Shown here piece after piece: positions 49,331 through 53,532 of a stretch of DNA of 62,972 nucleotides. A model generated the notes under the pieces. That model was given only the letters and a program-made list of their open reading frames with translations, was not told the DNA's origin and did no database searches. Every line of letters starts with the position of its first letter. Position 1 is the stretch's first letter. The stretch is taken from positions 1 through 62,972 of the forward strand of contig JAYUFK010000270.1 in the NCBI GenBank assembly GCA_043739325.1. The letters run 5' to 3'. Made by a program: the position numbers and the translations under genes. Source of the stretch: Methylocapsa sp. Lineage in GTDB: Bacteria > Pseudomonadota > Alphaproteobacteria > Rhizobiales > Beijerinckiaceae.

Positions 49331-51148
49331 CTATTTGGCCGGCGAACTCTCTGTCGGCCGCAAGAACGAGCCAAGGATCGCCGCTGGCCCATCCAGCGCG
49401 CCGCCCGCGCCGCCGACATAGACCTGCGGCAGCTTGAGATTGGCGACAAGTTCTGGATGCGCGCCAAGCAGGTCGAGCATCAGTTTGAGCTGCTGCAGCT
49501 TCAACACGCTATCCTTGCCCAGCACTTCGGCTTGCGCCGTTTGGCCCGCCGCCTGTTCTTCAAGGTAGAGGCGCTCGGCGTGGCCTTCCGCTTGCCGGCG
49601 ATCCTGCGCCAGCTGCGCGACTTTCACGGCCGTCTCGGCGGTGACGATGTCACGCTGCTGATCGGCGGTGGCGCGCGCTTGCTCGGTCTTCTGGCGCTGC
49701 TCTTGAGCGGTTTGCTCCTGGATATAGGCGGCGCGAAGCTGACCGGCGAGTTGCTCGCGTTGGCGCGCCAGCAACAGCTCGGGCGGAATCGCCGATTCGC
49801 CTAAGCGGATTTCCTTGATGTCGACGCCGGCGCGCCGCCCATCGATTTGGGCAAGCGCAAGGATCGCCTGTTCCAGCGCCGTGCGGTTTTCCACCGTGTC
49901 GAGCACCCGCGTCGGGCGCGTTGTCGATTTTGCCACGCCCTTGTCGTTGACATCAGCGACCGTGATCGCCCCGCCGTAGACGTTGCGCACAAGCGAGCGG
50001 ATCGAGGGTACAAGAATCCGCTGGTCGACGGCGTCCTGACCGCCGACCGCGGCGACAACGATAGGCGCATTCTCCGGCGTGATCTGCACGATGGCGCGCA
50101 GCTCCTGCGGAGTTTCCCAACCTTCGATCTTGGTGTTGATCGCCACATCGGCGGAATCGTTTGGCTTGGGAAATGACGCGCTGCGTTCGGTAACGGTGAT
50201 ATCGCCCTTGGCGTCGACTTTAAGATCGAGGTAGCGGCGGGTGAACCCGCCCTTGAATTCCAGCGTCGTTACACGCGTCGATACCAGCGTCACGTCAAAC
50301 GCATCGCGATTGAGATAATAGTCATTGGGCGGCAGCGATGTGTCCCATATCCCCTTGCAATATTGCGGCACAAGTTCGGCGGTCAGTCCGCCCTCATCGG
50401 TCTTGGCCGTTCTCGGTTTACAATCGACGCCAGCGCTTTGGACCGAGGATCGCACGACGCCGACGGAGCCGGCGGGCACACGCGTGATCGACGTATCGAG
50501 CGGCGTGTCCTCGTGGGTCAAGCCGCGAAGGTCATATATGTCGTCGTTGCTGGTGGTGACGTCGCGGCCATTCTTGACATAGCCGATCTTGACCTGAAAC
50601 AGCGCCAGATTGAGCGGATAGACGCCCGGCCTCAGCAGACTGAGCTGCAGCCCCTTCTGGCCGCCGTGGGTCATGAAATATTCCGCGTCGAGGAACTTTT
50701 GCTGCTCCGCTTCGGGCCAGGCGTCGGCCATGATCTGCCCGACGCCCAGCGAGTCGCCGTCATTTGCGACGATACGACCGTAAAAGCCATTCGGAACCGT
50801 GACAATGGGGACCAGATCGACGCGATTGAGCACGTTGAAGAACACCGAAATCCGGAACGTGCCGGGCGGGATAATCTCCGCCTGGTAGCCGGTCTCGCCG
50901 CGCGCCGCGATGATGTGTCCGGGCGGGATGTTTGACAGGCCATAGATCTTGCGGACGATCCCCACCTCATTGGCGGGGATTGTAATGATGCTGGTCGCCA
51001 GAACCTCGTAAAGCGTCACCAGCCCGAACAGAAGCCGCAGGCCGCCGATCGCCCCGGTGCGCCGCCAACCGGTGATCGCGTCGGGCACCACGCGGGGCGC
51101 GAACAAAAGCGCCGCGATTGCGGCGAAAGCGATCAGGATTTCCAACAT
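49331..51148 (-). CDS. SPFH/band-7 (flotillin-like) membrane protein
   Basis: N-terminal TM, IPANEVGIV, GQKGLQ...PGVY, ILVPSIRSLVRN, GVDIKEIRLGESAIP, EQ-rich coiled coil. Confidence 0.7.
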   Translation of the reverse strand: MLEILIAFAAIAALLFAPRVVPDAITGWRRTGAIGGLRLLFGLVTLYEVLATSIITIPANEVGIVRKIYGLSNIPPGHIIAARGETGYQAEIIPPGTFRISVFFNVLNRVDLVPIVTVPNGFYGRIVANDGDSLGVGQIMADAWPEAEQQKFLDAEYFMTHGGQKGLQLSLLRPGVYPLNLALFQVKIGYVKNGRDVTTSNDDIYDLRGLTHEDTPLDTSITRVPAGSVGVVRSSVQSAGVDCKPRTAKTDEGGLTAELVPQYCKGIWDTSLPPNDYYLNRDAFDVTLVSTRVTTLEFKGGFTRRYLDLKVDAKGDITVTERSASFPKPNDSADVAINTKIEGWETPQELRAIVQITPENAPIVVAAVGGQDAVDQRILVPSIRSLVRNVYGGAITVADVNDKGVAKSTTRPTRVLDTVENRTALEQAILALAQIDGRRAGVDIKEIRLGESAIPPELLLARQREQLAGQLRAAYIQEQTAQEQRQKTEQARATADQQRDIVTAETAVKVAQLAQDRRQAEGHAERLYLEEQAAGQTAQAEVLGKDSVLKLQQLKLMLDLLGAHPELVANLKLPQVYVGGAGGALDGPAAILGSFLRPTESSPAK

Positions 51149-51368
51149 TGGCGGGTTCTCGGCGGTGAAGGCGGCGCGCTATCCCTACGACGCGCCAGCT
51201 TAACTTACCCCAGACTTATTTGCATATCGCGCGAAATTACATTGCGGAATGGCTTCAAAACGTCTGGACTCCGTTTACGCTTTGCAAAGAATTTTGAACC
51301 ATCGAGACCGTAAAATGCTCTATGGAGAAAAGCCTGCGAAGGCGGGGAAACCGTTGCGAGGACTTCCA

Positions 51369-52718
51369 ATGGCGCGCAAATATTTCGGCACGGACGGTAT
51401 TCGCGGCCGGGCCAATGGCAAGATCACCGCTGAACTGGCGATGAAAGTCGGTCAGGCAGCTGGCCTCGCCCACCGCAACGGCGAACATCGCCATCGCGTC
51501 GTCATTGGCAAGGACACGCGCCTGTCCGGCTATATGATCGAATACGCCCTCGTCGCTGGCTTCACTTCGGTCGGTATGGACGTTCTGCTGCTCGGCCCGG
51601 TGCCGACCCCGGCCGTGGCGATGCTGACGCGCTCGATGCGCTGCGATCTGGGCGTGATGATTTCCGCCTCGCACAATCCCTTCGAGGACAATGGGATTAA
51701 ACTATTCGGCCCGGACGGATTCAAGCTGTCGGATGGAAACGAGATTGAAATCGAAACATTGATGGACAGCGAAATGACGCCGCGTCTGGCCAAATCGCGC
51801 GACCTTGGCCGCGCCCGCCGCGTTGACGACGTGCAGGCGCGCTATATCGAATTCGCGAAAGGCACACTGCCGCGCAACGTCTCGCTCAGCGGCCTGCGCA
51901 TCGTGATCGATTGCGCGCATGGCGCCGCGTACAAAGTGGCGCCCGAGGCGCTGTGGGAGCTCGGCGCGGAAGTCTTCAAGATCGGCGTCGAGCCGGACGG
52001 CATGAACATCAATCTCGATGTCGGTTCGACTTCGCCGGAGGCCTTGTCGCGCAAGGTGAGGGAAATGCGCGCCGACATCGGCATTGCTCTCGACGGCGAC
52101 GCCGACCGCGTGCTGATCATCGACGAGAAGGGCCGTATCGTCGATGGCGACCAGTTAATGGCGGTGGTCGCCGAAAGCTGGCAGGCAGACGGGCGGCTGT
52201 TAAAGCCTGGCATTGTCGCAACGATTATGTCGAACCTCGGTCTCGAGCGGTATCTGGAAAGCCTCGGTCTGACGCTCGAGCGCACCGCTGTCGGCGACCG
52301 CTACGTGCTTGAGCGCATGCGCGAGAAAGGCTATAATGTCGGTGGCGAGCAATCCGGCCATATCATTCTTTCCGACTACGCCACGACCGGCGATGGGCTC
52401 GTCGCCGCCTTGCAGGTGCTGGCGGTGGTTCAGCGCAAGAACAAACCCGTCAGCGAAGTCTGCCACCGCTTCGACCCACTGCCGCAACTTCTGCGCAGCG
52501 TGCGTTTCAACGGCGGACGACCGCTGGAGGCCGCGCATGTGGTGAAGGCCATTGCCGACGCCGAGGCCAGGTTGGGCAAGCACGGCCGCCTTGTCATCCG
52601 CCCATCGGGCACCGAGCCGGTGATCCGCGTTATGGCCGAAGCCGACGATCGCGCGCTGGTCGAGACTCTCGTAAACGAAGTTTGCGACGCGGTGGCCGCA
52701 TCGGCGGAGGCGGCTTAA
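51369..52718 (+). CDS. glmM: phosphoglucosamine mutase
   Basis: [36 protein letters not shown]. Confidence 0.97.
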
Positions 52719-52842
52719 CCGGGAGTTTCCCAACCCTGATGCAATTTTGCATCCGGTTGACGAATTATCCGCCCGGCTCTTTTCAAAACCGGGAATCGTC
52801 GTATTCTCGAGGGGTAGTCAACAACTGAAAGGAGGTGATCCA

Positions 52843-52914
52843 GTGTCTCATTGTCTATCGCCACAAGTGACGAGCAGGGCCTGGGTTATTGTCCGTGCGG
52901 AGCACTACGCATAG
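52843..52914 (+). CDS. 23-aa small ORF MSHCLSPQVTSRAWVIVRAEHYA
   Basis: GTG 7 nt after GGAGG inside GAAAGGAGGTGATCCAG; TAG at 52912-52914. Confidence 0.45.
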   Translation: MSHCLSPQVTSRAWVIVRAEHYA

Positions 52915-52966
52915 CAGACACCCAGTTGAGTTAGTCCTGAGCGATCTCTGCGTGGTCGCGACAATG

Positions 52967-53002
52967 GAAAGGCCGCCCCCGAAGGCGGCCTTTCTTCTTT
53001 TC
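52967..53002 (+). terminator. intrinsic terminator
   Basis: GAAAGGCCGCC-cccgaa-GGCGGCCTTTC followed by TTCTTTT. Confidence 0.85.
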
Positions 53003-53106: not shown

Positions 53107-53532
53107 TTGCCCGAACTGACTGACGCCAGCGGAAAGAAATCTTCCGCCCGCTCGGCAGCGGTCCGGGCGGCGGCGCGCCTTGCCAGGGAACGGCGCGACC
53201 AGCGCGTCATCAGCGGCCTTGCCCTTGGCGTCGCGATGGACAAGCTCGCCAGCCAAGAGAACGTTTCTGTCAAACGGCTTCGGATCATTGCGCGCGCTGC
53301 GCTGGCCCGGCGCGGTGTGGGCCGCTGGGATGACCGGCGGCATCTCGAATTGGCCCGGTTGAATAGCGCTATGCGAGTTGCGACTGCCGGGCTGATGGCG
53401 GGCGAGCTGAAGGCTGTCGATCGCGTGATCGAACTCGTTCGCGCCTTTGACCGCGCGGCTGAGCCATGGTCGGCCCGCCGAAAGCTCTTTGGAGAAAAGA
53501 AGTTCAACGGCGGGAAATCGCTTCGCAAGTAA
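53107..53532 (+). CDS. basic hypothetical protein, possible helix-turn-helix
   Basis: GVAMDKLASQENVSVKRLR resembles an HTH; C-terminal AVDRVIELVRAFDR. Confidence 0.5.
   Translation: MPELTDASGKKSSARSAAVRAAARLARERRDQRVISGLALGVAMDKLASQENVSVKRLRIIARAALARRGVGRWDDRRHLELARLNSAMRVATAGLMAGELKAVDRVIELVRAFDRAAEPWSARRKLFGEKKFNGGKSLRK

Follow-up and report, generated by a model that had tools for sequence, protein, structure and literature searches.

The window, a 62,972-nt stretch of DNA from Methylocapsa sp., carries on its plus strand (52814..53001) a predicted small transcription unit which, on sequence comparison, almost certainly belongs to the rre/CC2171 family of small mRNAs. The predicted transcript is ~188 nt long, as judged from its match to RF01867 and from a 5' end deduced from the promoter. 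The locus is real, conserved and already described in kind, that is, a new copy of a published family. We estimate a probability of roughly 55% that this unit, with its rre/CC2171 anatomy, is a weakly translated, self-limiting mRNA in which the fold of the RNA and the passage of the ribosome outweigh the peptide.

The ribosome site of the unit is an extended Shine-Dalgarno (SD) sequence of 17 nt, GAAAGGAGGTGATCCAG (52827..52843, +), which is an exact complement of the 16S rRNA tail and whose final G opens the GTG of a 23-aa ORF (MSHCLSPQVTSRAWVIVRAEHYA, GTG...TAG; 52843..52914, +). Both the complement and the overlap with the start codon had been pointed out in a sequence-only reading of this DNA, and both were confirmed. 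The 17-mer occurs once in the 4.15-Mb assembly, where 4e-4 copies are expected from base composition, and its sub-words of at least 13 nt are likewise unique. Its predicted duplex with 16S rRNA has an energy of -31.0 kcal/mol, compared with -8.6 kcal/mol for AGGAGG alone. Since the 16S gene of the source organism is absent from the assembly, the match was tested on the 16S tails of congeners. A 16S end was found in 11 of 15 congeners and all 11 read CTGGATCACCTCCTTTCT, matching the 17-mer; overall, the tail survey searched 80 of the 97 intended genomes and gave a match in 61, among which a single genome (G260) had a different tail beyond CCTT. Departures from the 17-mer seen in a relaxed search mostly leave a G-U pair in place (by hand count, A became G in 21 of 24 cases and C became T in 9 of 10). 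However, such departures are transitions too, and they were not counted as proof. We also considered, and rejected, that the start codon (GTG or ATG) covaries with the 16S base facing it, as the matched 16S ends all have the same base at this position. The absence of other rRNA sequence around the site, also claimed earlier, was borne out: at the Rfam gathering score no family, rRNA included, was found in the whole window.

A sigma70-type promoter is predicted on the basis of conservation at 52779..52807 (+), with a -35 box CTTTTC (52779-84), a 17-nt spacer and a -10 box TATTCT (52802-07). These boxes align by eye across the loci of the genus, and the -10 box places the start of transcription near 52814. 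A scan with the E. coli consensus returned no promoter at the locus; it also gave none on the minus strand, where an antisense antitoxin might start, but it had missed the plus-strand promoter as well. The spacer contains GAATC (52793..52797, +), an instance of the CcrM methylation motif GANTC. GANTC is found here in 30 of the 33 loci of genus type versus 25 of 141 other loci, and 2-15 of the 141 loci have it in other upstream windows. It is possible that this motif could link transcription to CcrM methylation or to GcrA in this genus. Control by GcrA/CcrM as a family-wide trait was rejected, as the motif is conserved in the genus and absent from the Caulobacter promoter region. Downstream, an intrinsic terminator (52966..53001, +) consists of a 12-pair stem (52966-52995) and a T tail, in agreement with the strong terminator that had been noticed after the ORF; terminator-like sites follow 124 of 142 homologous loci, compared with 9 of 142 control stretches. 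The unit is single-copy in the genome. It begins 95 bases after glmM (51249..52718, +; TIGR01455, 627 bits), which is an upstream neighbor outside the unit and is found within ~1.5 kb upstream at 25 of 29 congener loci versus 0 of 29 loci of other genera. A coupling to glmM was rejected, given a gap of at least 0.66 kb in 13 of these 25 congeners and the absence of the link in other genera. Two further observations concern the neighborhood. A 141-aa ORF after the terminator (53107-53532, +) has no Pfam or NCBIfam match and none in the flanks of 58 related loci, and a 605-aa protein encoded between ftsH and glmM (49331-51148, -) resembles SPFH/Band 7 weakly, at 22.3 bits, which is below the cut-off.

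The assignment to the family rests on both covariance models and anatomy. Positions 52819-52992 match the full RF01867 (CC2171) model with 70.8 bits and an E-value of 1.3e-14, a link that emerged only when an E-value threshold was applied. The gathering cut-off of this family is 75 bits; the copy in the window, ~4 bits lower, is thus not formally a member, but it is a clear CC2171 homologue. Among 20 homologous loci, six were above the cut-off (82.9-120.2 bits), and the copy of the same type in Roseiarcus fermentans scored 82.9 bits. The 5' motif, the long-range helix (CATTGTC/GACAATG) and the terminator hairpin of RF01867 are all present. The original Caulobacter screen is reportedly that of Landt et al. 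in 2008. Two defining features of rre units were also observed, namely a 16S complement of at least 16 nt (17 nt here, judged on congener tails) and its end on the first nucleotide of a GTG or ATG that opens a small ORF. As to a third, a stand-alone organization, the terminator was found and a promoter was deduced from conservation and not from a consensus scan. The unit is neither rreB proper, having a 23-aa MSHC-type peptide and a glmM context versus a 14-aa RreB and tRNA-Gly, nor rreR proper, as the 18-aa RreR peptide is missing. The sequence-only reading had suggested a catalogued rhizobial family of the alpha-r kind. The unit is indeed of a catalogued family (RF01867 CC2171, or rre); however, it is not alpha-r, since none of the alpha-r covariance models matched the window unit at E <= 1.

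DNA matches were found in 34 of 36 same-genus genomes, the two misses being 75% and 52% complete, and all 30 genus loci fetched, including that of the window, preserve the 17-mer without change, start at GTG and have ORFs of 23-25 codons; the two features singled out earlier are thus conserved in homologues. The closest named records among the matches listed are from Roseiarcus (L042 and L080). Within the order, the exact 18-base site was detected in 83 of 301 genomes, once in 82 of these 83 and with no control matches, and a relaxed pattern detected the site in 64 of 121 genomes but not in the other 57. For GTDB as a whole, ~3900 stretches were estimated from 2 of 64 parts, and at least 120 loci were listed. 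Among the loci listed, peptide types follow lineages: MSHC..W of 21-26 aa (the type of the window), MSSE..EQP of 21-27 aa, a 14-aa type in Bradyrhizobium and an 18-aa type in Rhodobacterales. Copies of alphaproteobacterial type were also seen in records labelled Parcubacteria, Hydrogenophaga, Woeseiaceae and Gammaproteobacteria (L140, L132, L128 and L076), a placement that may reflect either mis-binning or transfer. In addition, a pattern match in Methylomirabilis (L118:123-325, -) coincides with RF02471 Ms_IGR-5, above its cut-off.

A search outside Alphaproteobacteria, seeded from Phycisphaerales and Bordetella records, detected the exact site in 8 of 61 genomes of the Phycisphaerales order and in 19 of 81 genomes of a Burkholderiales family, once in each and with no control matches. 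The eight ORFs on the Phycisphaerales side have 10-19 codons, and those on the Burkholderiales side have 24-34 codons in 13 of the 15 loci fetched and 48 codons in two. GGATCA lies inside the ORF of 11 of the 13 short-ORF Burkholderiales loci (counted by eye). At the Rfam gathering score, 20 loci from the two groups gave nothing but a tRNA. An extended SD, a GTG or ATG, a short ORF and a terminator-like hairpin were observed on the Burkholderiales side (L207-L221, L054 and L061) and, with the same anatomy, on the Phycisphaerales side (L199-L206, L052 and L136), the peptides being clade-specific on both. The rreB/rreR family was described in 2016-17 and is reported there from Alphaproteobacteria only (PMC5711450); judged from sequence, the same anatomy in Burkholderiales and Phycisphaerales genomes is outside this published range. 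Our literature search, which mostly did not reach subscription journals, found no paper on these copies and no follow-up on rreB/rreR, and the main text of a S. meliloti Ribo-seq paper (PMC10117765) does not mention rre. Seventeen viral stretches also had the site. Six of them look like rreB or MSHC copies from hosts, and in most of the rest a long SD stands before an unrelated ORF; thus, the 17-mer alone is not diagnostic. In viral contigs L185, L187 and L190 the site precedes Lys-rich peptides of 11-13 aa ending in Cys. In L066, L086 and L146 (Azospirillum) and in L084, L213 and L214 it precedes ORFs of 48-60 aa, unlike the short-ORF types, with a signal-peptide-like start and a Cys.

Previous studies provide experimental data on homologues. 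In Bradyrhizobiaceae, rreB is a 165-nt mRNA that co-sediments with 30S subunits (Hahn et al., RNA Biol 14:1353, PMC5711450). The long SD and the GTG keep its translation weak. The RNA has a half-life of 10 min, or of 37 min when the start codon is removed, and its numbers are far below those of ribosomes. A 20-fold overexpression, also of a translatable variant, left growth unchanged. Stable fragments of ~60 nt and ~120 nt were seen, the RreB and RreR peptides are unstructured, the SD of rreB was predicted to stay in a hairpin, and the peptide was called conserved (PMC5711450). In Caulobacter, a single probe bears the two labels CC2171_CC2172 and R0051 'Translated CCNA_03965' (Schrader et al. 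2014, PMC4117421). CCNA_R0051 is 193 nt long with a mapped triphosphate (PPP) 5' end, and CCNA_03965 is an 87-nt ORF whose chromosomal YFP fusion gave a band, one of four that did. In the same study, with one data set for each medium, the Ribo-seq signal of CCNA_03965 was 0 RPKM in rich versus 2049 RPKM in minimal medium, with RNA values of 1334 and 1696, respectively. This medium dependence could reflect either regulation or a library artefact. At the Caulobacter locus (L092) an in-frame CTG six codons before the GTG gives the same 87-nt length as CCNA_03965, and by this comparison the CTG start in the annotation probably lies six codons upstream of the true one. After mitomycin C, R0051 was up 4.4-fold, in a non-specific, growth-state-like manner (PMC6237742), and it is listed as G1-enriched (PMC5988900); CC2171 was Northern-positive in Methylorubrum (10.1101/2022.01.24.477521). 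By analogy with rreB and CC2171/R0051, the proposal of a mini-mRNA with strong 30S binding is supported for the window unit.

The predicted fold of the unit is more stable than that of most shuffled sequences (z = -3.0; 2 of 200 shuffles fold as well). A long-range helix, P2, joins CATTGTC over codons 3-5 (52849..52855, +) to GACAATG before the terminator (52960..52966, +), and is present in the minimum free energy (MFE) structure, in the RF01867 consensus and by covariation. In an alignment of 36 sequences P2 is paired in 100% of cells, and of the six pairs in the helix that extends it, four show two-sided changes, so that covariation, which had been proposed as a check, was indeed found in homologues. 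The named structure scored 0.171 for covariation versus 0.118 for shuffled alignments (0 of 500 shuffles) and beat all slid versions, a shuffle result that kinship among the sequences can inflate. These comparisons support a covarying long helix P2 that would close the body of the RNA. From a plain MAFFT alignment of the genus, RNAalifold retrieved P2 and otherwise only short local stems. The stop-codon hairpin noted in the sequence-only reading (CTGGGT 52881-86 with ACCCAG 52920-25, and GTGCG with CGCAT) is in the MFE structure. The second hairpin proposed with it (GCGATC/GGTCGC) is possible by sequence but is not in the MFE structure, where its bases join a longer helix, that of P2, which the sequence-only reading had overlooked.

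A second pairing, P1, is formed by the 3' half of the SD and a CTGG segment at the Trp codon. It crosses P2, so that the two must be either alternatives or a pseudoknot. The Trp codon region contains an internal mimic of the 16S tail, CTGGGTTATT (52881..52890, +), for which folding predicts two partners, namely the 3' half of the SD (P1) in nascent RNA and 52920-25 in RNA of full length. P1 is paired in 91.7% of cells without a two-sided change, because its SD side is invariant. It was predicted in the nascent RNA of 33 of 34 genus loci and 36 of 41 other MSHC loci, but in the full-length RNA of only 6 of 34 and 4 of 41, respectively; in the window copy, predicted pairing of the SD 3' half falls from 0.94 to 0.36. 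The internal mimic is thus predicted to hide the ribosome site while the RNA is nascent. In full-length RNAs of the genus, 74% pairing is still predicted for the AGGAGG core. Within the genus, the SD self-duplex does not surpass shuffles (mean z -0.76, 0 of 34 below -1.64), and it beat shuffles in 27 of 49 non-genus MSHC, 7 of 14 rreB, 12 of 21 rreR and 8 of 35 MSSE loci, where upstream controls gave 1-3 per set. A 10-nt P1 test failed for the RreR18 (z 0.05) and MSSE (z -0.34) types. In two Caulobacteraceae loci (L072 and L093) the 3' UTR has a nearly exact copy of the 16S tail, GGGATCACCTCCC, which could pair with their own SD.

An ORF of 12-27 codons was found in 141 of 148 pattern-selected loci and was never shorter, compared with 47 and 20 loci in the other two frames; this count disregards peptide classes, which are defined partly by length. 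Of 84 loci examined for the Trp codon, 77 had it, 74 of them in frame. Within the ORF, 5 of 6 distinct gaps of the 36-sequence alignment are multiples of 3, versus 9 of 33 in the 3' UTR. Length, Trp frame and gap pattern together indicate selection for a translated frame whose length is fixed. Each peptide class uses all three stop codons, and the distance between the stop and the P2 strand is found in all three frames. Selection on the amino acids is another matter. In 26 genus sequences, all with 24-codon ORFs and thus not including the 23-codon copy of the window, pN/pS was 0.72 (1.28 and 0.72 in the other frames), and it was 0.94, 0.86 and 0.98 in three further sets of 17, 20 and 13 sequences; these are rough values from ungapped, spanning-tree pairs with no significance test. 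Changes in the ORF are spread evenly over codon positions. On these sequences the amino acids show no clear coding-type selection. Because RNA pairing suppresses synonymous change, these values lower a role of the peptide but do not remove it, and a pN/pS near 1 is also expected for a functional peptide under an overlapping RNA constraint.

[quoted passage not shown] We consider this explanation unlikely, although conservation of ORF length and frame, the translation observed in Caulobacter and Bradyrhizobium, and the Caulobacter Ribo-seq difference between media, which could be regulated synthesis, are all in its favor. The near invariance of MSHC and W across several orders would fit a peptide too; however, the conserved codons are those that sit in helices P2 and P1, third positions included. 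The pN/pS values and their lack of codon-position bias also argue against it, as do the unrelated peptides of different clades, the unstructured RreB and RreR, and the lack of a growth effect of RreB overproduction. Pfam gave no match for the 23-aa peptide. Of the regulatory or toxic micropeptide suggested in the sequence-only reading, the toxic form finds no footing, with the longest hydrophobic run being five residues (AWVIV), no membrane-spanning run and no growth effect of RreB; for the regulatory form, clear protein-level selection was not seen.

For the preferred reading of a self-limiting mRNA, we propose an RNA-centred mechanism, to which we give even odds at best. Transcription of the unit would run from a promoter to a terminator of its own, as shown for homologues. 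In the nascent RNA, the 16S-tail copy at the Trp codon would fold back and mask the ribosome site, and once the 3' end is made P2, seen by covariation, would form and the P1 pairing would be released in a predicted switch. The 30S subunit may then bind through up to 17 bp, the last two of which would compete with the base of 16S helix 45, and start slowly at GTG, in line with the 30S co-sedimentation and weak translation shown for rreB. Initiation or translation would promote decay of the RNA (as with the 10 min versus 37 min of rreB), perhaps by the ribosome opening P2. The RNA level might in this way report the initiation readiness of ribosomes with an intact anti-SD tail, and it would go up when growth slows.

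The same strong pairing could instead serve to trap or store 30S subunits, as a ribosome sponge or hibernation aid. The predicted -31 kcal/mol duplex, the co-sedimentation of rreB and the rise of the Caulobacter RNA with growth state are consistent with this idea. However, the unchanged growth under 20-fold rreB overexpression and the scarcity of the RNA relative to ribosomes (Hahn et al.) leave the bulk trapping that had been suggested earlier unsupported, and a trap does not need a conserved ORF length; we find this explanation quite improbable.

Another possibility is a trans-acting base-pairing sRNA, or a sponge for sRNAs with CCUCC (anti-SD-type) motifs, with the ORF acting as a stability timer. 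Alphaproteobacteria have many CCUCC-bearing sRNAs, Rfam lists the family as sRNA, and the ~60-nt and ~120-nt rreB fragments are stable. However, there is no conserved single-stranded seed besides the 16S complement, and the unit matches the 16S tail along 17 nt, well past CCUCC, which makes such a role very improbable. A guide or check for 16S 3'-end maturation, the other ribosomal effect raised earlier, appears more doubtful still. The complement does cover the tail up to ...CCUUUC as well as two bases of helix 45 (its last two, by inspection of one congener's 16S), and the site is single-copy in all but one of the 83 genomes with a match. However, the complement stops at ...CCUUUC with no extension into the 16S precursor trailer, and its end near the mature tail argues against a role on the precursor; in no more than 15 of 148 loci could the base 5' of the 17-mer pair with the 16S base that comes next, and a site not found by the relaxed pattern in 57 of 121 order genomes fits a core biogenesis step poorly. 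Finally, the unit is reminiscent of type I toxin mRNAs in having a long-range helix and an SD predicted to be masked in the nascent RNA, but a toxin mRNA or an inverted rRNA remnant is hardly credible for a single-copy unit at a stable glmM-linked site whose peptide has no membrane-spanning stretch and whose relative RreB has no growth effect, and a chance remnant is ruled out because ORF, promoter and terminator are conserved.

Returning to the self-limiting mRNA, these comparisons sharpen the question of what the family does, and a test of peptide versus RNA is now well defined; public Caulobacter data already hold a medium-dependent ribosome signal. As a tentative generalization, possible but not probable in our view, rre/CC2171 units may be cross-phylum translated RNA switches with the 16S tail as ligand, in which the mimic and P2 gate a 16-17-bp grip on the 30S subunit, an ORF of fixed length and free sequence resets or destroys the RNA, and the RNA level reports free intact 30S. 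If this sensor reading were true, a natural ribosome site of maximal strength would limit translation and would have been kept in several bacterial classes.

Among known systems, alpha-r sRNAs resemble the unit as stand-alone Rhizobiales RNA genes of ~100-200 nt with terminators. The rreR units of Rhodobacterales share the ribosome site and the overall layout, but have an unrelated 18-aa peptide and carry the anti-SD mimic in the 3' UTR and not in the ORF. With rreB the unit shares the identical 17-nt SD (the last base of which is the G of GTG), a Ser second codon, a small ORF, a terminator and a predicted promoter of its own, and an internal sequence pairing with the SD; the rreB cloning primer continues GTG TCT TAT versus GTG TCT CAT in the window (PMC5711450). 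However, RreB has 14 aa (MSYxKRCHLAGIAR type) versus 23 aa here, the peptides being alike only at the first residues, and rreB is 165 nt long and lies beside tRNA-Gly whereas the window unit lies beside glmM; Bradyrhizobium loci match RF01867 weakly (41.7 and 28.3 bits). The middle of the RNA in the window aligns poorly to the RF01867 model. Caulobacter CC2171/R0051, which Rfam catalogues as sRNA, differs in genomic context and in a promoter region without the GANTC of the window, but shares the 17-mer, GTG TCT CAT TG, helix P2, the terminator and a similar length (193 nt).
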